From: an uncultured Acidobacteriota bacterium
GTDB taxonomy: Bacteria; Acidobacteriota; Vicinamibacteria; Vicinamibacterales; UBA2999
Reading direction: 5' to 3'
DNA: 64,000 nucleotides
NCBI GenBank assembly: GCA_963818645.1
Contig: CAWFTF010000024.1
Span: 61,493 to 125,492, forward strand
Numbering within the stretch: position 1 is the first letter of the stretch; the number at the start of each line of letters is the position of its first letter. Shown here piece after piece: positions 545-60,026 of the stretch. The position numbers and the translations under genes were made by a program. The notes beneath the pieces were generated by a model. The model made no database searches and was not told the DNA's origin. It saw nothing but the letters and a program-made list of their open reading frames with translations.

Positions 545-1675
545 ATGATTAACGTCGCCGCCATCCGAATGCAGCAGTTCGGGGTCCGGTTCTATCAGGC
601 CTCGCTGACCGCTGGAGACATCGACAAGCTAGTGCGCTTCGAAGTGCTCAACTACGGCGATTCCGGACAACCGGTCCGTGGTGGCAACAAGAAGGCGCCA
701 TCGAAGGTCAATTGGGACCTGCTCGAACGTCGCATCGCCTCGAGCGAGAAGGCCTATCAGCGCCAGATCATCAGGCGAAAAATTGACGAACTCGTGCAGT
801 ACTACGAGCAATGCCGCCAGGCTCGCGACCTTCCGTCGATCGCGGGCGCTGTGATCATCTCGTGCGACGAGAAGCTCGCGTTCGAGCCCGTCTCTGAGGG
901 CGCGTCGATCGGCCGTCTCAAGGTGCCCGAGCGAGAGGGTATTCTGCGCGCGATCGACGGCCAGCACCGCCTGCTCGCGCTGCACGCCGACATCGACAAC
1001 ATCAAGGACGAGGACTTCACGGTGCCGGCGATCATCTTCGATCGTCTGCCGGAAGATCACGTCGTGCAGATGTTTGTGACGATCAATGCAAAGCACACGC
1101 GCCTCAATGCGTCGCACCTCGTCAGCCTGTCCGGCCGTCAGCTGTATCGCGACGACGCGTTGGCCGCGGCGCATGATGTCGTTCGGGCACTGAACGATCG
1201 CGAGGATTCTCCGCTTCACGGCGAGATCAAGCTGCTTGGCGTCGGCCACGGGCGAGTGGCACAGGCACCGATCGCGCAGGAACTGAAGAGGCTGTTCGCG
1301 AGCGACGCGTTCGGCGGGCCGCGGAAGGCCGCGGATTTCCGCGAAGAGTCGAAGAAGTTCTTCGTGAATTACTTCAAGCAGGTTTCCGTTGTGTTCGGCG
1401 TGGCGTGGAACGGACGGAAGTACAGCATCAAGTCGGCGACGGCACTTCGTGCGTTCATTCGTGTTGCACCGGATGTGGTGCGGAGGCTCGACCAGGAGCA
1501 CGCCGATCGCACCGACTATCGGGCAATTGGCCGCGTGATAGCACCCTGGGGTCGTCGAATCGGAAACGTCAGGTTCGAGAGCGAGGGCGTGTGGAAGCGC
1601 GCCGGTACGACCGTCGATTCACTTGCCCGTGAACTGAAGCTGGCGTTGGAATACCCGGAAGGGGCGGGCGTTTAG
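545..1675 (+). CDS. DGQHR domain protein (DndB/ParB-like fold)
   Basis: Contains YQR, IDGQHRL and MFVTIN motifs typical of DGQHR proteins. Confidence 0.85.
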   Translation: MINVAAIRMQQFGVRFYQASLTAGDIDKLVRFEVLNYGDSGQPVRGGNKKAPSKVNWDLLERRIASSEKAYQRQIIRRKIDELVQYYEQCRQARDLPSIAGAVIISCDEKLAFEPVSEGASIGRLKVPEREGILRAIDGQHRLLALHADIDNIKDEDFTVPAIIFDRLPEDHVVQMFVTINAKHTRLNASHLVSLSGRQLYRDDALAAAHDVVRALNDREDSPLHGEIKLLGVGHGRVAQAPIAQELKRLFASDAFGGPRKAADFREESKKFFVNYFKQVSVVFGVAWNGRKYSIKSATALRAFIRVAPDVVRRLDQEHADRTDYRAIGRVIAPWGRRIGNVRFESEGVWKRAGTTVDSLARELKLALEYPEGAGV

Positions 1676-13124: not shown

Positions 13125-13224
13125 GGTTTGCTTTTGGGAAATTCCGTCTTTGGAGTTACACTCAGTCGGACCTTCACTCTGATTTTCACCCACCCCGCCC
13201 TGAAGGTTGCTTCCGGGGGAGTTC

Positions 13225-13986
13225 ATGCAGCAGCGCCGGGTTCGGCTCGGTGACGTCCTAGACGACTATTGTTCGCGCGAGCGCCGCATCACGAACCATG
13301 CGGTGGTCGCGATGATCGAAGACGAGGTGAAGCAGACACGCTGCACCACGTGCGACACCGAGCATGAGTACAAGCACGCCAAAATGCCAGCACCGCGACG
13401 CAAGAAGCCTGTCGCCGCGGCAGCACTCGTGTCCGCGGAGGCGACTGAGTCGCCAACCCTGATGTCCGACGACGAAGAGACTGTCGAAGAGATGATCGAC
13501 GACGCGCCCGTACCTCCATCATCACTGGAAGCTGCGAAAGAATCCGAGGCCCCAGAAGTTGCCGGGGTGGTTGACGACGAACCCCCGGCCGAGGGGACAG
13601 AAGACGAGTGGGTTCATCGACCGCTGATTCGCGCCACGCTTCCACGACCAGAGGGGCAAACGCCTGAGCGGAAACCGACCGACTTCACGATCCGTCAGAA
13701 CAGCGGTCGGTTCGACGGCGAGCGAAATGGCAACAAGCCTCGCGGGAACAGGCCGGGTCGCCACGCTCAGGGACAAGGGCAGGGACAGTCACGATTCGGC
13801 GGCGGCGGTTCACGCCAGGGATCGGGATACGGCTCGCGTCAAGGTGGTGGGCAGCAGGGCGGCAATCAACAGCGCCACGGCGGCAATCGTCCAGGCCCAT
13901 CGTCCGGACAGCGCGGCGGACGTCCCGGCCAGGGTGGTGGCAGCAATCGGCCAGGACAAGGCCGCGGCCCCAAGCGCGGGCGGTAG
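13225..13986 (+). CDS. hypothetical protein: Cys/His N-terminal domain, acidic linker, Gly/Arg/Gln-rich tail
   Basis: DDYCSRE...H...RCTTCDTEH, followed by low-complexity segments; GGGGGAG RBS upstream. Confidence 0.7.
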   Translation: MQQRRVRLGDVLDDYCSRERRITNHAVVAMIEDEVKQTRCTTCDTEHEYKHAKMPAPRRKKPVAAAALVSAEATESPTLMSDDEETVEEMIDDAPVPPSSLEAAKESEAPEVAGVVDDEPPAEGTEDEWVHRPLIRATLPRPEGQTPERKPTDFTIRQNSGRFDGERNGNKPRGNRPGRHAQGQGQGQSRFGGGGSRQGSGYGSRQGGGQQGGNQQRHGGNRPGPSSGQRGGRPGQGGGSNRPGQGRGPKRGR

Positions 13987-14913: not shown

Positions 14914-16753
14914 TTACGAAACAGCGCGATTGTCTGACGCGGCTGGCGGGTGAGACGCGGCGCGTGCCTGCACATCGCGCTTGTACATCACCTTGTTCCG
15001 ATACATACGGCGGTCGGCCTTCGCCATCAGCACTTCGTAGGTATTTCCATCGTGCGGGAACACCGCAGCACCCGCGCTGATCGAGAGCGGCATCCGTACG
15101 CCTGGTTTGGCTTCGAACACCAGGCTCTCGACGGCCTCCTGCAGTTCGAGTCTCTTGTACTCAGCCTCGTCCCAACCGCAGCCCGCGAGCACGACGAAGA
15201 ACTCGTCGCCGGCGTAGCGGACGCAGACGTCGTACGGACGAATGGCGCCACGGAGCACCTGAGCGATTTCGCGCAGCGCGCGGTCGCCGACGTGATGTCC
15301 GAACGTGTCGTTGATGTCCTTGAAGTCGTTCAGGTCCATCACGAGGAGCGACACTTCCGCGTTGCCGCGCTCGGCACGAGCGAGCTCGCGTCCAAGATGG
15401 TTGACCATGAATCGCGTGTTCGGCAGGTTCGTCAACGGATCCGTCAGCGACGCTTCATGCGTCTGCTCGAAGACGATCGCGTTGTGGATCACCGCCGCGG
15501 CCTGTTCGCACACGCGATCGAGCAGGCGGCGATGGTCGTCGCCGTAGAAGCTCGGCGTCGTGTGATACACGGCCAGCGTGCCGATGACGCGGTCCCCGAG
15601 GAGCAGCGGGCACACCAGTGCTGACTGCAGTGTCGTGGGCAGTGACGAGCCCCCGGCCTCGAGATCGCCGCTCGGGCGGGCATTGACGAGCGGGCGCCGG
15701 TTGCGTGCCACCCACCCGGTGATGCCCTGACCACCTTTCAACGTGAGCTGCTGCATCAGCTCGTAGTCGGTGCCCGTTGCGAACCGGCAGGTCAGAAGAT
15801 TCTGGCTTTCGTCGTACTGGAACAACGTGCATGCCGAGAACGGCACCAGGCTCGTCAGCTTCGAGGCGATGAGCGCCATCGTGTCCGACACACCCAAGAC
15901 TGGTGCCCATCGTCTGAGCGATCTGATAGAGCGCGTAGATTTCGCCGTGCGCGATCGCGATGTCATTGAACACCGACGACTTCGATCGATCGGTTCGCGT
16001 CGCCTGTGCGGACGTGGCATCGACCGGACCGCTCTTGCGCTCCTTGTCGGCGCTCTCCGCCTCGTGGCGAACCTGAGGCAGGACCTGAACGAACGCCTGG
16101 ACGCATCGCGGATCGAGCGCTTTGCCGGCTTCCTGCTCGATCAACGCAACGGCCGCCTCGAACGTCATCGCCTCGTGGTAAGGGCGATTCGAGGTCAGCG
16201 CGTCGAAGTAGTCGACGAGAAACAGAATCCTCGCGCCGAGCGGGATGTCGTCACCTTTCAGGCCGCGCGGGTATCCACGTCCATCCCACCGCTCGTGGTG
16301 ATTCTGAATGAGCGGTGCGACCGGGTACGAAAAGGGGACAGCCGCGATGATATCCGCACCGACCTGCGGATGTGCCTGTACCTTCTGGAACTCTTCGGCG
16401 GTCAGAGGTCCAGGCTTCGAGAGGATGTGCTCCGGCACAGCGAGCTTGCCGATGTCGTGCAACAGCGCCGCCGTACGCACCGCCTGGGTCTCGCCGGCCG
16501 ACATGCCGAGCTCTCGAGCCACTGCCGTCGCGTAAAGCTGCACGCGGCGGATATGGTTCTCGGCCGTTCCGTCCTTTGCGTCGATCGCGCGCGCGAGCGC
16601 TTCGATCGTCGCCAGGTGCAGTTCGGCCAGCTGCTCAGCGCGTCTCTGCTCGGCCCTGAATCGAGCCTTGAAGATGCGATACGCGCGCAGTCCGAAATAG
16701 AGCACTCCCCAGACTAGTGCCAGGCTAGTTAGCCAAAGCGGCGGCTGGGGCAT
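14914..16753 (-). CDS. membrane-anchored HD-GYP + GAF + GGDEF c-di-GMP turnover protein; frameshift near 15895
   Basis: One N-terminal TM; HDIGK and HHERWDGRGYP; GAF (GITGWVARNRRP, SALVCPL); TDPLTNLPN, DINDTFGH and RYAGDEF. Confidence 0.9.
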
Positions 16754-16834
16754 TACGTGCTCCTAGCGGACGTCAGCAGGGAGCCAGATGATTGTGACGC
16801 GTTTTCTCATACTCGTTCCCCCGGAGGTTTCGTG

Positions 16835-19006
16835 TTAATGCCTACCGTGCCCGACGAACGGATCAAGTTCTTCGGCCCAGAGCACTTCCTCGAGTGCTTC
16901 AGACGTGCTCCAGACGATGTTGGTGCTCCACACGATGTTGTCATCGCGGCTGGTGCTCCAGACGATGTTGTCGTCACTCTTGGTGCTCCACACGATGTTG
17001 TCGTTGGCATCACCAGCAGTGCTCCACACGATGTTGTCGTCGCGGAGGGTACTCCACACGATGTTGTCGTCGCGGGTCGCCGTGCCCATGACGATGCCGT
17101 TCTTCTGCGAGCCCCACACCGTCTGCTGACAGTTGCGTCCGGCGCAGTCGTTGCCCCACACGATGTTCTGGAGGGTGCCGGTGCTCCACACGATGTTGTC
17201 GCCGCCCTTGGTGCTCCACACGATGTTGTCGTCACCACGAGTGCTCCAGACGATGTTGTCGCCTGTGCCCGTGCTCCACACGATGTTGTCGTTGCGGGCG
17301 GTGCTCCACACGATGTTGTCGTCGCCACCAGTGCTCCAGACGATGTTGTCGTCACCACGAGTGCTCCAGACGATGTTGTCGTCGGCGCCAGTGCTCCACA
17401 CGATGTTGTTCGCAGTGCTCCACACGATGTTGTCGTCGAGCCGCGAGCCCCATACCACTCGTGCACCGGTTGATGTCTCGAGCGAGCCCCAGCGGACGCC
17501 CGTGCTCCATGCATTGCTGCCCGGGAGCGGCATGCCGCCCGTGATGCGGTAGTTGCCCCAGATGAGATGACGCGCCCACGGCACCCAGTCGCCCTGTATG
17601 GTGTCGCCCATGTCGCCGAGGGTCGTCGTCGCCGGTGACGCGAAGAACTTCGCAAGACGCACTGCGCCGCTCGCGTTCAGGATCCCCGCGCCCTGGACCA
17701 GCAAGCTGGTGCTGCTGCGAAGCTCCGCGGTGTACTGCAGAATCGCCTTGACCGCGTTCGGCGTGAGCTTCGGGTTTTCCTCGAGCATCAACGCCACAGT
17801 GCCTGACACCACCGGAGCGGCCATGCTCGTGCCGCTCAGGCTCATGTAAGGCTTGAACGCGAGGTTGAGCTGAGGCGAGCCCGACACGAGCATCGAGGGC
17901 AGCGTGGCATAGAGCAAGCTATGTGAATCCGCCACCGACTCGATTCCAACGCCAGGCGCCACGAGGTCCGGCTTGGCCTGGAAGTCGATCCACGTCGGAC
18001 CACTCGAGCTGAACTTCGCAATCGTGTCGTTCCCGCGCTGGCTGCTCGCCTCTTCGCTCGACGCGCCGACCGTTAGAACCCAGGGAGCGTTGCCGGGCGA
18101 CGTGATGCCACCCGTCTGCGTCTGTCCCTGCGTGTTCTGCCCGAGGTTGCCGGCAGAAGCGACCACGACGATGCCAGCGTCGACAGCGCGCTTCGCGGCC
18201 AGCGTGAGCGGGTCGAGCCAGTAGGACTCGAACACGCCCGCGGCAACCGAGAGGTTGATGACGCGAATGTTGTATGTGCTCTTGACCGAGATCGCGTAGT
18301 CAATCGCCGCGATCACGTCGCTCATGTAGCCGCGACCGAGCCCGTCCATGACCTTCAGGCCAACCAGCTTCGCTCCCGGCGCGATTCCCTTGTGCTTACC
18401 GCCCGAGTCGTATCCTGAGCCCGCAATGATGCCCGCGACGTGCGTGCCATGGCCGTAGTCGTCGTAGGAAATGTTCGACCACACGCTCGTGCCGTTGGTG
18501 AAGTCCTTGAAGTGCGCGACGCGCGAATTGCCTCGAGTGAGGTCGTCGTGCCAATTCGTGATGCCGGAGTCGATCACCGCCACGCCAACGCCCTTACCCG
18601 TCACGTTCATCTGCTGGCGTGCGAGCGAGGCTCCCGTCGAGAGGCCGGTCCGCTCCATCGTCGCGAAGATCGGCCGATCGAGATAGACGCCCTCGACGCG
18701 CGGATCCGCAGCGATCCTCGAAAGCTCGACGTTCTCCACTTCCGCAACCTGGCCCCTGCGGCCGAGGCGTCGTCCGGCTTCGGCTCGTTTCCCGAGCAGT
18801 CGCACGTCGCTATCGCCGTTGAACTGGATGATGACTCGAGTGCGGCCGGACAACTCGCCCGCGCGGTGCCTCAGGACCTTATCCAGCTTGTCGGCCCTGT
18901 CGCCGCTGCCACTTGATTGCGCCATGGCACTAGGGGCTATAAGCAGGACTGCGGCCACTGCCAGAAGTGCTGAGGTTGCGGTCCGGAGCGATCGTGTAAT
19001 CGACAT
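16835..19006 (-). CDS. secreted S8 (subtilisin-family) serine peptidase with a C-terminal Trp-repeat tail
   Basis: Signal peptide ending ..APSAMA; triad VIDSG / HGTHVAG / GTSMAAP; NIVWST repeats. Confidence 0.93.
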   Translation of the reverse strand: MSITRSLRTATSALLAVAAVLLIAPSAMAQSSGSGDRADKLDKVLRHRAGELSGRTRVIIQFNGDSDVRLLGKRAEAGRRLGRRGQVAEVENVELSRIAADPRVEGVYLDRPIFATMERTGLSTGASLARQQMNVTGKGVGVAVIDSGITNWHDDLTRGNSRVAHFKDFTNGTSVWSNISYDDYGHGTHVAGIIAGSGYDSGGKHKGIAPGAKLVGLKVMDGLGRGYMSDVIAAIDYAISVKSTYNIRVINLSVAAGVFESYWLDPLTLAAKRAVDAGIVVVASAGNLGQNTQGQTQTGGITSPGNAPWVLTVGASSEEASSQRGNDTIAKFSSSGPTWIDFQAKPDLVAPGVGIESVADSHSLLYATLPSMLVSGSPQLNLAFKPYMSLSGTSMAAPVVSGTVALMLEENPKLTPNAVKAILQYTAELRSSTSLLVQGAGILNASGAVRLAKFFASPATTTLGDMGDTIQGDWVPWARHLIWGNYRITGGMPLPGSNAWSTGVRWGSLETSTGARVVWGSRLDDNIVWSTANNIVWSTGADDNIVWSTRGDDNIVWSTGGDDNIVWSTARNDNIVWSTGTGDNIVWSTRGDDNIVWSTKGGDNIVWSTGTLQNIVWGNDCAGRNCQQTVWGSQKNGIVMGTATRDDNIVWSTLRDDNIVWSTAGDANDNIVWSTKSDDNIVWSTSRDDNIVWSTNIVWSTSEALEEVLWAEELDPFVGHGRH
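16904..17437 (-). repeat. intragenic tandem repeat, mostly 30-nt units encoding (D/N/G)DNIVWSTxx
   Basis: 15 NIVWST plus 1 NIVWG; plus-strand core GTGCTCCA(C/G)ACGATGTT. Confidence 0.95.
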
Positions 19007-19025
19007 ATCGGCGGCTAGCTCATGG

Positions 19026-19040
19026 GCAAGAGTTCTGCCG
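19026..19040 (-). promoter_or_regulatory. sigma54 (-24/-12) promoter of the peptidase gene
   Basis: Minus strand CGGCAGAACTCTTGC (GG-N10-GC), 20 nt upstream of ATG 19006. Confidence 0.65.
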
Positions 19041-19147
19041 TAATCCGCATGTTTGCAAATGCGATCGACTAAAAGCTTAGGAATGAGCAACTTGCGGGAT
19101 AAAATCGACGTGCCATAATCACTTCCCGATTACGAACTCAGCTAAGT

Positions 19148-19248
19148 GTGTGCGGTTTTTGCACACGGTTTTGGTTGTCAGATCGGCGTAAATTGCTGTT
19201 GCGCTTGAGATAGAAGCTCCTCCACGCTGAATGTTCCATATCGGAACA
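19148..19248. promoter_or_regulatory. two candidate enhancer (UAS) palindromes
   Basis: GTGTGC-N7-GCACAC (19148-19166) and TGTTCC-N5-GGAACA (19232-19248); both fit TGT-N11-ACA. Confidence 0.45.
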
Positions 19249-19282
19249 CGTGAACACGAAAAAGAACCCGGCTTCGGGCCTA

Positions 19283-20614
19283 TTACTCTTCTTTGCTTCG
19301 GAATGCGCGGGCCTCAGGTTCGAGGCCGTATTCCACGATTTTTCGGTAGAGGGTGCCCCGGCTGATGTCCAGGAGCCGGGCGGCTTCCTTCTTGTTCCAG
19401 GCGGTGCCTTCGAGCACGCGCACGATGTGCGCACGCTCGGCCTCAGCCAGCGTTGGCACACGCGGCGGCGCGTCGGCGGTGACCGTTGCCTGTGGGTGAA
19501 GGAACTCGATGTCCGTATCTCTGATCACCCGGCCAGGAGCTGACAGCGCAGCGCGCGACACGGTGCTCTCGAGTTCACGGATGTTCCCTGGCCAGGGGTA
19601 GGAGTGGAGTCGTGCGATCGCCTCGGGCGAGAAGGCCTTCGCATCGAGCGGGAGTCCGTTCGTTGCGCAGTAGCGTGCAATGAATCGATTCGCGAGCACC
19701 CCTATGTCTACGGGGCGCTCACGCAGCGACGGCAGCCGAATCGAGAACGCATTCACGCGGTAGTACAAATCTTCACGGAAGCGGCTATCGCGCACGAACT
19801 GATCGAGTGGCCGGTTCGTCGCGGAGATCAGGCGGAAATCCACCTGCACGGATCGCTGTCCACCCAGTCGTTCGAACCGACGGTCTTCGAGGACGCGCAA
19901 CAGCTTTGCTTGAGCGACAAGAGAAAGGTCTCCGATCTCGTCCAGGAAGAGCGTGCCGCGATCGGCCAGTTCCACGCGGCCCGGTTTGCGATCGTGTGCA
20001 CCTGTGAACGCGCCCTTCTCGTATCCGAAAATTTCGGATTCGAAGAGCGTGTCGGGCAATGCTGCGCAGTTCACGGCCTGGAAGTTTTCGGTCCCGCGAC
20101 GACTCAGTTCGTGAATCATGCGCGAGACGACTTCTTTGCCGGAGCCGGTGGGCCCAAGAATCAGGACGGAGATGTCCGACTTGGCTGCCGTGCGAATCCA
20201 CTCGAACACGACGAGCATCTTCTCGTCGCGGCCGATCATTTCGCGGAAGCGCTGAACTGACGGCGCCTGGTCCTCGAGACTGATGTCCGCGCGCCGCTCG
20301 AGGAAGGTATCGAGGAGTCGGTTGAGGACGTCGCTCTCCGGGCGGATGGCCGAAAACTGCGCCGGGCTTCCCTGAGCGCGGCCGACGATGCCGAATTCAA
20401 CGAGCTCGCGAAGGCAGTTCTCGATGTCCAGGCGCAGACGCCCGAACGTCGCCATCAGTGATTCGACTTCAAAGGCCTCGCCTGGACGCGCCGAGAGAAA
20501 GCGCAGCAGTCCGGCCCGGAGAGGGGACTGGACGAGCGAGCGAAACCTCGCCTCCTGATCCCCGTTGACGTCAGGCCTCGGCATCGTGACCGCTCGATTG
20601 GTGGCTGCACTCAT
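19283..20614 (-). CDS. sigma54-dependent transcriptional activator (bEBP) with an atypical N-terminal domain
   Basis: GPTGSGKE, ESEIFGYEKGAFTGA, LFLDEIG, FREDLYYR, WPGNIREL and Fis-type HTH (AARLLDISRGTLYRK). Confidence 0.95.
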   Translation of the reverse strand: MSAATNRAVTMPRPDVNGDQEARFRSLVQSPLRAGLLRFLSARPGEAFEVESLMATFGRLRLDIENCLRELVEFGIVGRAQGSPAQFSAIRPESDVLNRLLDTFLERRADISLEDQAPSVQRFREMIGRDEKMLVVFEWIRTAAKSDISVLILGPTGSGKEVVSRMIHELSRRGTENFQAVNCAALPDTLFESEIFGYEKGAFTGAHDRKPGRVELADRGTLFLDEIGDLSLVAQAKLLRVLEDRRFERLGGQRSVQVDFRLISATNRPLDQFVRDSRFREDLYYRVNAFSIRLPSLRERPVDIGVLANRFIARYCATNGLPLDAKAFSPEAIARLHSYPWPGNIRELESTVSRAALSAPGRVIRDTDIEFLHPQATVTADAPPRVPTLAEAERAHIVRVLEGTAWNKKEAARLLDISRGTLYRKIVEYGLEPEARAFRSKEE

Positions 20615-20747: not shown

Positions 20748-21878
20748 ATGCCTTACCGTGCCCCGGGCGCCGAGAAATCAGGCGCCAAATACCTCACTGG
20801 CAAAGCCATTCGCTACTATCGGCCCCGCGGAAGCGCCGACCTCCGGCACCTGATTGAGGAGGGTTTTCAGGCATTCAATGCGGCGCGGCTTGGTGAAGCC
20901 TGTCGGATTTTCACCGACAAGATGCTGCTGCCCGAGCACGACACGACTATCGCGCTGACCGTCGCCGGTGCATTGACACCCGCGGGTCTCGGCGGCTGTA
21001 TGGTCGAGCTGATGGAGCGCGGGCTCGTTGACTTCCTGATCAGCACGGGCGCCAACCTCTACCACGATCTTCACTACGCTCTGAACTTTACCCTTCACCG
21101 AGGCTCACCATTCGTCAACGACGTCGAGCTCTATGAAGAGGGCGTTATTCGCATCTACGATGTGCTCTTTCCAGCAACCGTACTGCTCGAGACTGACGCC
21201 TATATTCGCGACTTCCTCGTGCGGTGGGGTGTCGATCGACCGGTCTCTACGGCCGAGCTGCACTTCGCGCTGGGGCAGGACCTGCTGGTGAGTCACCCTG
21301 AGTGCCGGGAGCATTCGGTGCTCGCTGCGGCAGCAGCCTGCGGCGTTCCGATCTACACCTCTTCTCCCGGCGACAGCTCGATCGGCATGAACGTGGCGTT
21401 TCACGAGTTGATGAACGACAGCGGTCTCATGATCGATCCCAACAAGGACGTGAACGAGATCTGCGCGTTCATCCTCGCCGGCAAGAAGAACGGCTGCGTG
21501 ATCCTCGGTGGAGGTTCCCCGAAGAACTTTTATCTCCAGGGACAGCCGACGTTGTGGGAGGTCTACGGGATCCCCAAGGGCGGCAACGACTACTTCATTC
21601 AGATCACGACCGATCAAGTCGTCTGGGGCGGACTCTCAGGTGCGACGCCGGCCGAGGCCGTGAGCTGGGGCAAGGTCAATCCCGGTGTCCTTCCCGACAC
21701 CGCCGTTGCTTACGTGGACTCGACGATCGGCTTCCCGCTCTTCTGTGAGTACGTGGTCGGATCGCCGCGAGGCCGCCGTCCGCTCAAGCAACTCGTGCAC
21801 AAACGCGACCAGTTGGTCGCGGCGCTGCGCAAGCAGGCAAAAGAGAGCGTCGAATCCAGGGCCGAAACCAGGACGTAG
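20748..21878 (+). CDS. deoxyhypusine synthase-like protein (probable homospermidine synthase)
   Basis: STGANLYHD, DSSIG, GGGSPKNF and GGLSGATPAEAVSWGK. Confidence 0.88.
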   Translation: MPYRAPGAEKSGAKYLTGKAIRYYRPRGSADLRHLIEEGFQAFNAARLGEACRIFTDKMLLPEHDTTIALTVAGALTPAGLGGCMVELMERGLVDFLISTGANLYHDLHYALNFTLHRGSPFVNDVELYEEGVIRIYDVLFPATVLLETDAYIRDFLVRWGVDRPVSTAELHFALGQDLLVSHPECREHSVLAAAAACGVPIYTSSPGDSSIGMNVAFHELMNDSGLMIDPNKDVNEICAFILAGKKNGCVILGGGSPKNFYLQGQPTLWEVYGIPKGGNDYFIQITTDQVVWGGLSGATPAEAVSWGKVNPGVLPDTAVAYVDSTIGFPLFCEYVVGSPRGRRPLKQLVHKRDQLVAALRKQAKESVESRAETRT

Positions 21879-21896
21879 AACCCAAAGAGCCGACAG

Positions 21897-22358
21897 ATGG
21901 GTACCCTGGCGTCCGAGTTAGGCGGTTACGCCGAGCAGGTCTCGGGACAACCCAGAGTGTACGTTGACGCGAACGTGCCGGCCGGACTCGTGTCCTTCAT
22001 GCGACAGGTGCTGCGGTGGGATGTGCTCTTCGTGCTCGAACATGAAGAACTGCGACGGGCACCTGACGGTGAGCATTACCGTCTGGCGAGACAGCTTCGT
22101 CGAACGCTCATCACACAGGATCGCGACTATCTCGACGATCGCAAGTTTCCTCCTGAGCAGAGCGGTGGCGTGCTGGTGATGTGGGCGCCGGTCGAGAAGG
22201 GCCTGATGGCCCTGCTCAAGCGCGTCGATCGTGAGGTTCTCCGCCGCTCGCCGCTCGCCGACAACGGTTCCGACGAGATCGCTGACGTCCCCTTGCCACT
22301 CGAAGGGCGCAAGCTTCACGTCCATATCGACTGGGACGGAGAGAGAATCGCGCCGTGA
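21897..22358 (+). CDS. DUF5615-type PIN-like protein
   Basis: VYVDANVP ... LITQDRDY pattern. Confidence 0.7.
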   Translation: MGTLASELGGYAEQVSGQPRVYVDANVPAGLVSFMRQVLRWDVLFVLEHEELRRAPDGEHYRLARQLRRTLITQDRDYLDDRKFPPEQSGGVLVMWAPVEKGLMALLKRVDREVLRRSPLADNGSDEIADVPLPLEGRKLHVHIDWDGERIAP

Positions 22359-23533
22359 TCGTCGTCAGCGGTGGCGACCTGATTCTGTCCGGGCGCCTCG
22401 TCAGCGAGGGGTCGCTGATCATCGACGGTGGCCGCATCACGGCGATCGAGTCGCGTCGTGTCGATCCGGCAGGAGCGACGATCGTCGACGCGAGCGACTG
22501 TTACGTAGCGCCAGGCTTCATCGATGTCCACGTGCACGGCCTTCACGGACACGACACGCTCGATGGTGAGGGCGCGGTCGCGCACATCGCCGCGCTGCTG
22601 CCGCGATACGGCGTCACGGCGTTTTGCCCGACAACGGTGGCGTGCGGTCCCGACGATCTCCGCAGCGTGCTGCAGCAGGTCCGCCAGGCGAGAGTTGCGC
22701 CGGTGGCCGGATCTGCACGCGTGTTGCCGGCCCACCTCGAAAGCAACTTCATCAACCCGGAGTACAAAGGAGCGCAGCCCGCGGATTGTCTGCGACATGC
22801 GGGTGAAGGATCGCGCGATGGGGTCTACTCAGCGGCTGATGTCCTCGATGTGATTTCAGCGGGTCGTCCCGATGTCGGTATCGTGACGATGGCGCCCGAA
22901 CTACCAGGCGGTATCGAACTCGTTCGCTCGCTGGCAGCGGCGGGACATCGCGTGTCGCTCGGTCATTCCGGATCCGACTACGACACCGCGATTGAAGCGA
23001 TCGAGGCCGGAGCGCGTCATGCCACGCATCTCTTCAATCGCATGACGCCGATGACCCATCGCGCGCCCGGACTGCCGGGAGCGGTGCTGGCGCGTGAAGA
23101 AGTGACCGTCGAGCTGATCTGCGACGGCTATCACGTGCATCCCTCGATGTGCCGTGTCGCGGTGGCCGCAAAGGGGCCGGACGGGGTGATGGCTATCACC
23201 GACGCTACATCCGGAGCCGGATTGAAACAGGGCTCGAAAGCCAGATTGGGCGGGCGACCGATCGAAGTGGGAGCGCAGGCCGCCTTTCTCGAAGACGGGA
23301 CGCTGGCAGGCAGCACGCTGACGATGGACAAGGCCTTCCGGAACATCGTCACGAGTTTCGGCGGTTCGCTGGTGGACGCTGCGCTTCTGTGCTCGACCAG
23401 TCCGGCCCGTGCCCTGGGGCTGAGTGGCTTCGGCGTGCTGGCTGAAGGGGCGGCCGCCGATGTGGTGGTGCTCGACCGTGCCTTCAGAATCCTCCGCACG
23501 TTCATCGGTGGCCAGCACGTGTGGGGGGCCTGA
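22355..23533 (+). CDS. nagA: N-acetylglucosamine-6-phosphate deacetylase
   Basis: PGFIDVHVHG, HLE, TMAPE, GHS, THLFNRM, DGYHVHP, ITDA and LAGSTLTM. Confidence 0.92.
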   Translation: MIVVSGGDLILSGRLVSEGSLIIDGGRITAIESRRVDPAGATIVDASDCYVAPGFIDVHVHGLHGHDTLDGEGAVAHIAALLPRYGVTAFCPTTVACGPDDLRSVLQQVRQARVAPVAGSARVLPAHLESNFINPEYKGAQPADCLRHAGEGSRDGVYSAADVLDVISAGRPDVGIVTMAPELPGGIELVRSLAAAGHRVSLGHSGSDYDTAIEAIEAGARHATHLFNRMTPMTHRAPGLPGAVLAREEVTVELICDGYHVHPSMCRVAVAAKGPDGVMAITDATSGAGLKQGSKARLGGRPIEVGAQAAFLEDGTLAGSTLTMDKAFRNIVTSFGGSLVDAALLCSTSPARALGLSGFGVLAEGAAADVVVLDRAFRILRTFIGGQHVWGA

Positions 23534-33068: not shown

Positions 33069-34840
33069 CAGAACCACCATCCCAGGCCGATGTTGACCGA
33101 GTTCGGCGCCTGAATCACCGTGCTGCGATTTCCCACGATCGAGTAGTCGAACTTCACGGCGACGTCGGGATCGGGCCAGTACGTTGCGCCAACAACCCAC
33201 GCGTCGCGGTCGAACTCCGGAAGGCCAACATAACCCGTGGGCATTCGGAACTGCGTGTCGAAGTTCTCGTACCTGGCGAACGTGCCGATCTCGCCGAACC
33301 GCGGATGTGAGATCACTCGATAACCAGCCTCACCGTAGAAGCCACGCAGCACCCGCGCGACGTTCGGGTTGACGCCAACGCGAATCGCGAGGGCATCGTT
33401 CAAGCGTCCCGCGTTGTCGAGCCACACCTGCGAGAACTGCCCGCGCAGCTCCAGTTGACGGCGCGAGTAGCGGGCATCGAACTCCGCGAGCGAGACAGGA
33501 ACATCGAAGACCGGCTGGAACTGGAATCCCGACTTGCCGGACCATCCGCTTGCCCCCAGCGTCAGCCCGCGAATCGCGACGTATTCGAGTCGTCCTGTCA
33601 CACCGGGCTTGCTGACGTTTGCCTCAGAGCCTTTCTGTCGGCCTTCGCGGATGCCTTCCTCGGCGGTGAACTCACCGGCGTCGAGTGGCGCGACGACGTA
33701 CACGCGATATCGCCACCCCCGGCCGACCTCGCCATGCACGCCCGCGCCGACCTCGAACCAGGTCGTCGGGATGATGAACGTGTCGTTGAAGGGGCGCTCG
33801 ACGCCGTAGTAGACCGGCGGCTCGTGGCGTTCGTTGATGATGCCGATTGGCATGAGCAGCATCCCCGCGCGGACGTTGAACGAGCGGGAGAGCAGGAAGT
33901 CGACGTACGCCTGTTCCAGTTCGAGCTCGCCTTTCTCCTCGAGACCCTCGACCACGGCATGTTCGAGCTCGAGCTCGCCGACGAAGCGAATGCGTTCGGA
34001 GAAGTTGTGCGTGACGAGCAGGACGAATCGATGGAAGTCCAGTTGCGCGTCGCTGAACTCGGGGTTGTTGAAATGGAAGTCCATGTAACCCGAGAGCGCC
34101 GTGCGTGGCTGCTCGGCTCGCGGCGTCGCCTGTGCCCACACTGGCGACGAGAGCAGAACGAGGAGCAACACATGCACCGCCTGCACGAGCAGCTTGGACG
34201 CGGCCTTCGTCCCGATCGTCAGCCTGCGATTGTTGCTGCGCCGGACGCGAACGCTATCGGCTGCGGGATCGCGCTCCTCGACCGAGATCGCCTCGCCCGG
34301 CTTCAGATTGTGGTGCTCGATGAAGCGCAGGAAGTCTTTGTCCTGATCGATGATGCGCGTGACGGTGACCTTGGTGTCGAGTGGGCACGTCAGCAGCGTC
34401 TGGAGCTTCTGCGGCTTGACGAGGCCTTCGGCGTTGGGAATTGGATCGCCGTGCGGGTCGGTCTCTGGCCTGCCCAGCATCGCGTCCATTCGATCGACGA
34501 ATCGATCGCTGACGGTGTGCTCGAGTTGTTCGGCCTCGTCGTGCACTTCGTCCCACGAGTAGCCCATCACCTGCACCAGGAAGAGCTCGATCAGGCGATG
34601 ACGACGCGTGACGAGTGCGGCGAGTTTCTGTCCGGCCTTGGTCAGTGCCACGCCAGCGTAGGGCTCGTATTCCACGAGCCCCGACTCCGCCAGCGTCTTG
34701 ACCATCGTCGTCGCCGTGCCGGGCGTGACGTTGAGGGCGGTGGCCAGCTGGCCCATCGGCAGCAGCCGCTGTGGAGGCTCCAGGCTGTTCGTGCCGATGT
34801 ATATGGCTTTGAGGTAGTTCTCGACGGTGCTCGACGGCAT
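33068..34840 (-). CDS. DtxR/MntR-family metalloregulator fused to an outer-membrane beta-barrel (porin-like)
   Basis: ENYLKAIY, RRHRLIELFL, EAEQLEH, DPHGDPIP and FeoA domain; then VLLLVLLSSPVWAQ and an amphipathic beta-rich region ending LGWWF. Confidence 0.8.
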   Translation of the reverse strand: MPSSTVENYLKAIYIGTNSLEPPQRLLPMGQLATALNVTPGTATTMVKTLAESGLVEYEPYAGVALTKAGQKLAALVTRRHRLIELFLVQVMGYSWDEVHDEAEQLEHTVSDRFVDRMDAMLGRPETDPHGDPIPNAEGLVKPQKLQTLLTCPLDTKVTVTRIIDQDKDFLRFIEHHNLKPGEAISVEERDPAADSVRVRRSNNRRLTIGTKAASKLLVQAVHVLLLVLLSSPVWAQATPRAEQPRTALSGYMDFHFNNPEFSDAQLDFHRFVLLVTHNFSERIRFVGELELEHAVVEGLEEKGELELEQAYVDFLLSRSFNVRAGMLLMPIGIINERHEPPVYYGVERPFNDTFIIPTTWFEVGAGVHGEVGRGWRYRVYVVAPLDAGEFTAEEGIREGRQKGSEANVSKPGVTGRLEYVAIRGLTLGASGWSGKSGFQFQPVFDVPVSLAEFDARYSRRQLELRGQFSQVWLDNAGRLNDALAIRVGVNPNVARVLRGFYGEAGYRVISHPRFGEIGTFARYENFDTQFRMPTGYVGLPEFDRDAWVVGATYWPDPDVAVKFDYSIVGNRSTVIQAPNSVNIGLGWWF

Positions 34841-59704: not shown

Positions 59705-59784
59705 TCGTCTCCTCCCGGCGTCCTTCGCGCCGGAGCACCTTGCGACTCGCGCGAGCGCGATCGAAGGCAGGGACTGATAGTTCA

Positions 59785-59962
59785 GGTGCGAGGTATCCTG
59801 GCTCGCGGAGCTGCGATGATTCGATCTGCCTTCCCGAGTCCGGCGGGTCTAGACCACCTGAACTCAGTGGCGTGTGCGATCGAATCTCTCCGCTTACAGT
59901 GGCGGGACCGCGTGGGTTTTCCACCCACTTCCCTCATCTCACCCGACGGGAGCTTTCCAGCG
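59785..59962 (-). promoter_or_regulatory. cobalamin riboswitch
   Basis: Minus strand has AGGGAA..GGTG.AAA.CC, CGGTCCCGCCACTGT, GCCACTG, GGGAAGG and GAGCCAGGA.ACCT, upstream of btuD. Confidence 0.92.
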
Positions 59963-60026
59963 GCGAGTATAGCACGCTAGAATTTACGAAGGTTTTGCCC
60001 ATCCAAATCGATGGGCGCTCACTGCT

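Follow-up and report, generated by a model that had tools for sequence, protein, structure and literature searches.

Acidobacteriota are abundant in soil, and to our knowledge peptide signalling has barely been described in them. Elsewhere, proteins joining a MASE9 domain to HD-GYP, with or without GAF and GGDEF domains, are exemplified by T. maritima TM1467 and S. venezuelae HdgA; for MASE9 Galperin and Chou proposed intramembrane ligand binding without naming the ligand, and the words 'protease', 'peptidase' and 'Acidobacteria' do not occur in the main text of that paper (10.1101/2021.11.05.467447). In the Rgg/SHP and ComR/XIP systems (RRNPP type) a hydrophobic peptide is encoded by an easily overlooked short open reading frame (ORF) beside its regulator (PMC4162386), and FleQ binds cyclic diguanylate (c-di-GMP) through residues R144, R185, N186, E330 and R334 (PMC11039405). 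Here we analyze a 64,000-nt stretch of DNA, hereafter the window, from an uncultured bacterium of the Vicinamibacterales (Acidobacteriota; assembly GCA_963818645.1, contig CAWFTF010000024.1, positions 61,493 to 125,492), and within it a locus that encodes a sigma-54 activator, a subtilase with a Trp-repeat tail, a very short gene with a related Trp motif (henceforth the micro-gene) and a c-di-GMP enzyme. Our preferred reading, to which we assign a probability of roughly 0.4, is that this is a conserved, activator-driven operon whose Trp-motif micro-peptide acts as a trans ligand of MASE9 sensors, the protease tail being an exported multi-copy version of the same motif.

The initial annotation of the window correctly described three co-oriented genes, which lie on the minus strand, for the activator, the S8 protease and an HD-GYP/GAF/GGDEF protein. 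The 81 nt between the stop codon of the protease and the start of the c-di-GMP gene also hold a 15-codon ORF, MRKRVTIIWLPADVR, which that annotation overlooked. The stop codon of this micro-gene adjoins the ribosome-binding site of the next gene in the window, and its first 11 codons form a conserved core. Among 41 loci fetched by means of the activator or the protease, the core is present in 30, a KAVWS-type version in one outgroup locus, nine end before this point and one is a different locus; with a looser search, the micro-gene was recovered in all 30 of the clade loci so fetched that extend that far. Across the 36 loci obtained by other means than the peptide pattern, the proportion of synonymous differences (pS) is 0.555 and that of nonsynonymous differences (pN) 0.066, giving a pN/pS of about 0.12, with a downward bias of pN from the detection pattern. 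A ribosome-binding site precedes the micro-gene in 35 of 36 loci, as against 115 of 785 control ATGs. A pattern scan of 185,579 GTDB genomes returned 54 matches to the micro-gene, every one at the same syntenic locus, these loci being chosen by the peptide pattern itself and including kin that are not independent. Judged from the substitution pattern, selection on the micro-gene acts at the level of the peptide.

The presence and loss of genes around this peptide were followed in 95 complete and distinct activator loci, a sample in which the pattern scan over-represents the window's clade and which leaves aside 12 incomplete loci. Downstream of the activator, 86 of the 95 have an HD-GYP and/or GGDEF gene, and the protease is found in only 36. 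The loci with a TIIWLP peptide fall on one side of a branch with 98% support in a quick tree, opposite six outgroups. All 41 complete loci of the window's Vicinamibacterales clade keep the micro-gene. The protease is absent from 11 of these (three changes on the tree), which mostly keep the enzyme, the HD-GYP domain is absent from six (five changes), and five loci keep the protease without HD-GYP. No relocated ortholog of the HD-GYP protein was found in five genomes lacking it at the locus with the query used, the best matches there being 42-51% identical as against 57-96% for orthologs. In loci without the protease the start codon of the micro-gene lies 15-189 nt past the promoter, and in three loci (L106, L113 and L147) the micro-gene closes the operon, with fabI converging on it within 100-220 nt of the stop. 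Pairs of loci that share a loss differ at 40-63% of the four-fold sites of the activator and still keep the peptide; given this divergence, and the converging fabI in three loci, the retention of the micro-gene is not mere inertia. Thus, across the genomes compared, protease and enzyme have repeatedly been lost around a retained micro-gene, and because relatives dispense with either of them while keeping the micro-gene, the peptide is likely to be the signal of the circuit.

The c-di-GMP gene is split in the present assembly by a one-base frameshift at 15892-15897. The extra base is absent from the contigs of all four DNA runs, including a 1529-nt contig with six other differences, and since none of these runs has it, it represents an assembly error and the gene is intact in nature. 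The contigs of the RNA runs likewise lack the base, and together with those of the DNA runs they rule out a real pseudogene or a programmed shift; contigs from four metatranscriptomes span much of the stretch and are uninformative on transcription, its strand or its level. The protein retains an intact HHERWDGRGYP, an RxxH specificity motif, an AGDEF A-site and an RPYD I-site. Among the clade loci HHE..GYP is present in 36 of 36 and HD(I/V/L)GK in 34 of 36, and the specificity position, canonically RxxK, reads RPYH in 33 of 36; RxxH is listed, with no substrate given, as a natural variant of HD-GYP (10.1101/2021.11.05.467447). AGDEF takes the place of the GG(D/E)EF A-site in 83 of the 85 loci that have an RxxD I-site, and a cyclase with AGDEF was reported to be active (PMC3974145). 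Orthologs in the outgroup loci possess the full MASE9 domain; the window protein, which lacks the multi-helix PF20972 region ahead of HD-GYP, aligns with the last MASE9 helix alone and has almost no outer loop. The membrane anchor noticed earlier is therefore present but is only the remnant of a lost sensor. MASE9 was found in none of the 54 pattern loci. As the neighbouring enzyme has lost this domain, it cannot serve the tail as a MASE9-type receptor in cis. A possible relationship of MASE9 to the S-components of energy-coupling factor (ECF) transporters surfaced only as a sub-threshold Pfam match (E 0.01), with no match among PDB sequences.

The protease is arranged as a Sec-type signal (residues 1-29), a propeptide, a catalytic domain, a beta-rich linker and the Trp-repeat tail. 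Its catalytic residues D146, H186 and S394 and the oxyanion N287 show no variation across all 68 aligned homologs, and a fold search with the protease returned subtilisins only, the best being Tk-SP (PDB 3afg). The signal peptide was recognized by eye and its Ala29-Gln30 is at least 90% conserved, so that the enzyme, earlier called secreted, is better described as predicted to be exported to the periplasm and only possibly beyond it. All 16 Trp units reported for the tail are there, but the DDNIVWST form singled out for them occurs in just nine. The unit changes from NIVWG to NIVWS/A/T on the same branch on which MASE9 is lost, which is a single event and not a statistical co-variation. A complex prediction of the full MASE9 of ortholog L036 with 40 residues of its own protease tail scored 0.00 against a mark of 0.32 and counts neither way.

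The activator, detected in 33 of 36 genomes from the genus, almost always in single copy, and in 112 of 301 of the class, has an N-terminal ArsR/SmtB-like winged helix, an AAA+ domain and a C-terminal Fis-type helix-turn-helix (HTH), and it displays the Walker B, R-finger and sensor II elements of sigma-54 enhancer-binding proteins. Its GAFTGA loop is intact at residues 201-206, as previously noted; 105 of 107 activator loci have GAFTGA and two GAYTGA. In the structure model (predicted local distance difference test, pLDDT, 84.5) the N-terminal domain is confidently modelled and superimposes on CzrA with a Z-score of 12.3 and a root-mean-square deviation of 2.5 Å over 92 residues. No receiver, GAF or PAS domain was detected in the activator, and a literature search found no paper on sigma-54 activators whose input domain is ArsR-like. 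Equivalents of the FleQ arginines R144, R185 and R334 are kept in 105, 99 and 104 of the 107 loci, respectively, where the positions of E330 and R334 were mapped by an ungapped offset; all three occur together in just one of the 31 other activator matches of the genome. With three arginines kept and the other two residues replaced, feedback of c-di-GMP on the activator through a FleQ-like site is plausible. Cys67 is invariant in all 107 loci. Many relatives (L035, L156, L160 and others) also carry, between GGDEF and fabI, a mostly co-oriented gene for an FAD/NAD-binding oxidoreductase that is absent from the window; this gene and Cys67 together hint at a redox input.

The -24/-12 promoter and both TGT-N11-ACA palindromes ahead of the protease are as the initial annotation gave them (Table 1), and the entire window has five sites of the TGT-N11-ACA type. 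Using the pattern TGTKCM-N5-KGMACA, derived from the window and close relatives and allowing at most two mismatches, we found an upstream palindrome in 46 of 50 clade loci versus 3.4 in shuffles, in 45 of the 50 at about -111 to -127, and, outside the clade, at 13 of 22 promoter-like sites. Among the 497 promoter-like sequences of the genome only that of the window has two good enhancer sites. The RpoN (sigma-54) control proposed earlier is supported by this conserved GG-N10-GC element and its phased upstream palindrome, which the adjoining activator probably binds. From the conserved position of the -24/-12 element the start of the protease is placed at ATG 19006; a start at TTG 19090 is ruled out, as it lies upstream of the conserved promoter, and so is TGGCAC near 19115 as the promoter, since it lacks the -12 GC. 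No Rfam family, riboswitches included, matched at the locus.

Table 1. Features of the locus, in window coordinates
Feature	Coordinates	Strand	Evidence or remark
One-helix-anchored HD-GYP/GAF/GGDEF protein, about 612 aa, MASE9-less derivative	14914..16753	-	Pfam, motifs, alignment
Micro-gene MRKRVTIIWLPADVR, 15 codons, in the 81-nt gap	16763..16810	-	GGGGGA ribosome-binding site, conservation
S8 subtilase, 723 aa	16835..19006	-	Pfam, alignment, model, fold search
Tail of the subtilase, 15 NIVWST and 1 NIVWGN units	16904..17431	-	Spacing of about 10 residues, two blocks around a conserved Cys pair
Sigma-54 -24/-12 promoter, GGCAG-N5-TTGC, conserved	19026..19039	-	Motif and conservation
Proximal enhancer, a TGT-N11-ACA palindrome lying about 124 nt upstream of the -24 element	19149..19165	.	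Motif and conservation
Distal enhancer, a TGT-N11-ACA palindrome lying about 207 nt upstream of the -24 element	19232..19248	.	Motif
Terminator-like hairpin and T-run directly past the activator stop	19265..19280	-	Weak: 6 sites versus 4.4 expected by chance
Sigma-54 activator, 443 aa	19283..20614	-	Pfam, structure model, conservation in 107 loci

The Trp motif and its association with MASE9 extend well beyond this locus. A linkage of Trp-tailed subtilases to signalling genes, anticipated when the window was first annotated, is borne out: 21 of 40 such genes have a MASE9, HD-GYP or GGDEF gene within 4.5 kb, compared with 0.46% of random windows, where seven of the 21 are orthologs of the window locus and the MASE9 profile also matches the truncated form. 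Searching 201 genomes of the order for a micro-gene ending in ...LIIWG[ED]-stop gave 19 matches and none for the reversed control; 17 of the 19 follow an S8 gene and 16 precede a MASE9-HD-GYP gene, with 16 standing in paralogous cassettes between a Trp-tailed S8 gene and the MASE9-HD-GYP gene. The genus has 25 such matches, 15 preceding MASE9 and 10 located after nrdJ. The window's own genome contains a paralogous cassette (L001:6967-10870, contig C15) consisting of an S8 gene with an NILWG-repeat tail, frameshifted in the assembly, the micro-peptide MRRLIIWGE and a MASE9-HD-GYP-GAF protein that is the single detected PF20972 match of the genome. Upstream of the paralogous S8 gene, at about 25870-26110 of C15, there is also a short HTH ORF, presumably Xis/excisionase-like, and a possible sigma-54 promoter. 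A stand-alone MKLIIWGE with a ribosome-binding site (C22:3779-3805) directly follows the gene for the B12-dependent ribonucleotide reductase, nrdJ; this stand-alone copy recurs in 10 genomes of the genus including the window's and indicates that such micro-genes can work away from a cassette. This brings the genome to three micro-genes and a single detected MASE9 protein. Of the 36 genomes of the genus, 32 have MASE9 at E<=0.001, as do all 14 of the near-complete ones.

In 11 of the 40 cases (L048, L054, L055, L060, L063, L064, L068 and L071 among them) the first gene after the Trp-tailed subtilase is one that we take, from its sequence rather than a profile, to be GNAT-like. Of 22 GNAT-like C-termini inspected, eight end in a KA(V/T/I)W-like motif resembling the KAVWG micro-genes of outgroup loci, and some of the GNAT genes behind related proteases precede MASE9 genes; a GNAT of the linked type was not found in the window's genome. 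At L051, L055 and L056 the Trp-tailed S8 gene comes before an ORF of 26-31 codons that ends in KA(I/T)WGAR, after which stands a gene for a membrane protein that is presumably redoxin-like.

The gene order, the phased enhancer and promoter and the loss of MASE9 from the neighbouring enzyme are evident from the comparison of loci. On this basis we infer a circuit in which the activator would bind the palindromes and drive the operon, and the micro-peptide of 11-15 residues would be made and act in trans on MASE9 sensors encoded elsewhere; in this genome the target would be the one MASE9 protein detected, on contig C15. The protease tail would likely be the exported, multi-copy form of the same Trp motif, presented to MASE9 sensors either intact or as released peptides, the sensor-less neighbouring enzyme would shift c-di-GMP simply through its expression, and c-di-GMP would feed back on the activator through the FleQ-like arginines. 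A wider proposal, which we put forward only as a tentative possibility, is that the Trp motif in its several guises (micro-proteins of 8-15 residues, subtilase tails and acetyltransferase C-termini) constitutes a peptide-signalling network of the Vicinamibacterales for which no counterpart has been described, and the missing ligand of those MASE9 sensors that set c-di-GMP levels, with the present locus as a transmitter whose winged-helix activator itself reads c-di-GMP and fires the micro-peptide, protease and enzyme being optional cargo.

Several observations weigh against the proposal of a trans-acting MASE9 ligand, in addition to the detection biases attached to the pN estimate and to the pattern scan. 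The micro-peptide has no signal sequence and the tail is exported, which means that the two copies of the motif would reach the membrane from opposite sides. In 35 of the 95 complete loci the activator is directly followed by a MASE9-HD-GYP gene, and both the protease and the micro-gene are missing. The TIIWLP peptide, the loss of MASE9 and the G-to-S switch in the tail all fall on the same branch, a single shared event that is equally compatible with the peptide having switched from MASE9 to another target. The FleQ-type site is incomplete, with three of five residues, N186 being replaced by Met and E330 by Arg, and the equivalent of R185 is common to most activators. Finally, a search of the genome, which leaves room for weaker targets, turned up no further target bearing two enhancer sites.

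We weighed four other explanations, each of which accounts for some of these features. The tail could be a structural domain, a beta-solenoid or amyloid-like surface or matrix element, with the single-copy peptide as its seed, cap or inhibitor strand and the c-di-GMP enzyme co-induced for a biofilm-type switch. Each NIVW unit is indeed modelled as a beta-strand, the identical residues of which would stack as ladders, the tail of the paralog exceeds the Pfam cut-off for the ice-binding beta-roll (32.8 versus 30 bits), Hexapep is found on 16-28% of the members among Atlas neighbours, which is a lead only, and the unit count ranges from 0 to 21 among 120 homologs. We nevertheless regard a structural tail as unlikely, since its pLDDT is only 30-56, linkers vary between 0 and 6 residues within a single tail, and the micro-gene, whose product is made in another compartment, persists in the 11 loci without the protease. 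It is less likely again that the micro-ORF is a cis-acting leader that tunes the next gene by translational coupling or nascent-peptide stalling, its likeness to the tail being historical. The juxtaposition of its stop with the next ribosome-binding site in the window would suit such a role, as would the overlap of stop and MASE9 start at L036, the Pro-stop ending of 20 of the 55 distinct copies (Pro-stop is a known stalling context) and the KAxW-like ends of the GNAT genes, some of which stand before MASE9 genes. But the micro-gene is kept where no co-oriented gene follows, at L106, L113 and L147 and in the nrdJ copy of this genome, the spacing between it and the HD domain ranges from 157 to 418 nt, and a leader would leave 15 copies of the motif in an exported protease unexplained.

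An autoregulatory loop in which the micro-peptide binds the winged-helix or AAA domain of the activator, as SHP does with Rgg, would agree with the activator, promoter and micro-gene being the only near-invariant trio in the clade, and with a cytoplasmic peptide and an activator devoid of the common input domains. We rate it as improbable, given that, when 44 clade sequences are compared with 45 of the MASE9 type, the N-terminal domain shows no clade-specific substitution and the AAA domain a single one, and that a micro-gene is missing from the loci of most activator orthologs outside the clade. The least probable of these explanations, in our estimate, is the original one, in which the protease cuts its tail into NIVWST pheromones sensed by the adjoining enzyme. 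The catalytic residues and export signal of the protease are intact, a conserved core alternates with variable linkers and such proteases are tightly linked to MASE9 and c-di-GMP genes. However, no recurring cleavage motif was seen in the linkers, and the tail does not hold up as a signal source for its neighbour: the protease is dispensable, being missing from 11 of 41 clade loci that mostly bear the enzyme and present in five without HD-GYP, and the enzyme has no sensor domain, with a single MASE9 helix, almost no outer loop and no MASE9 in any of the 54 pattern loci. If the tail is processed, its receptor may well be encoded elsewhere.

The locus sits between flanks (window 13207-13986 and 20748-23533) whose synteny is stable throughout the genus and in many relatives outside it; one side has a deoxyhypusine synthase-like gene, a DUF5615 gene and an amidohydrolase gene, the other fabI, an orphan ORF of 259 aa and argH. 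Elsewhere the window encodes a DndB-family protein (545-1672, plus strand), a cobalamin riboswitch (59774-59990, minus strand, 82 bits) and, at 33071-34840 on the minus strand, a DtxR/MntR-type repressor in apparent in-frame fusion with a porin-like region, possibly another assembly artefact.

The module is real and conserved, and although each of its protein domains is known it appears undescribed as a system, with a mechanism that we infer; we found no paper describing it in a search whose reach excluded subscription journals and bioRxiv supplements. It offers a case in which purifying selection acts throughout a bacterial clade on a gene of 11 residues, shorter than gene calling usually admits. 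For the widespread sensor domain MASE9 no ligand is known, and the locus supplies a short list of synthesizable candidates, together with a defined promoter and enhancer and natural deletion variants of protease, enzyme and sensor that separate their roles.

Compared with described systems, the window enzyme descends from the architecture seen in MASE9-HD-GYP(-GAF-GGDEF) proteins such as TM1467 and HdgA (10.1101/2021.11.05.467447) and differs from them in keeping the last helix alone. The protease shares a propeptide, a subtilisin fold and an intact triad with S8A proteases that have C-terminal domains (AprX-annotated ones and Tk-SP), whereas its own C-terminal part consists of 16 repeats centred on Trp that match no family in Pfam or NCBIfam. 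BASS amyloid signalling, in which the motif pairs an NLR with a Bell or effector domain, likewise has genes side by side that share one short beta-prone motif (10.1101/2020.01.06.895854), but the locus genes include no NLR and no Bell or cell-death effector, and the proteins with the motif would occupy different compartments. The activator resembles FleQ/FlrA-type regulators as a sigma-54 AAA+ protein with equivalents of R144, R185 and R334 beside a c-di-GMP enzyme; it differs in the replacement of N186 and E330, in its ArsR-like winged helix and in its predicted target, which is one peptide/protease operon and not flagellar genes. The closest parallel in gene organization is with Rgg/SHP and ComR/XIP, where likewise an overlooked short ORF for a hydrophobic peptide stands beside a regulator (PMC4162386). 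No Rgg-, ComR- or TPR-type cytoplasmic receptor was detected at the locus in Pfam and NCBIfam scans of its genes; the regulator here is a sigma-54 AAA+ protein with a winged helix, the host is diderm, and the peptides are 8-15 residues long with little or no leader and have a motif that recurs as a multi-copy subtilase tail.

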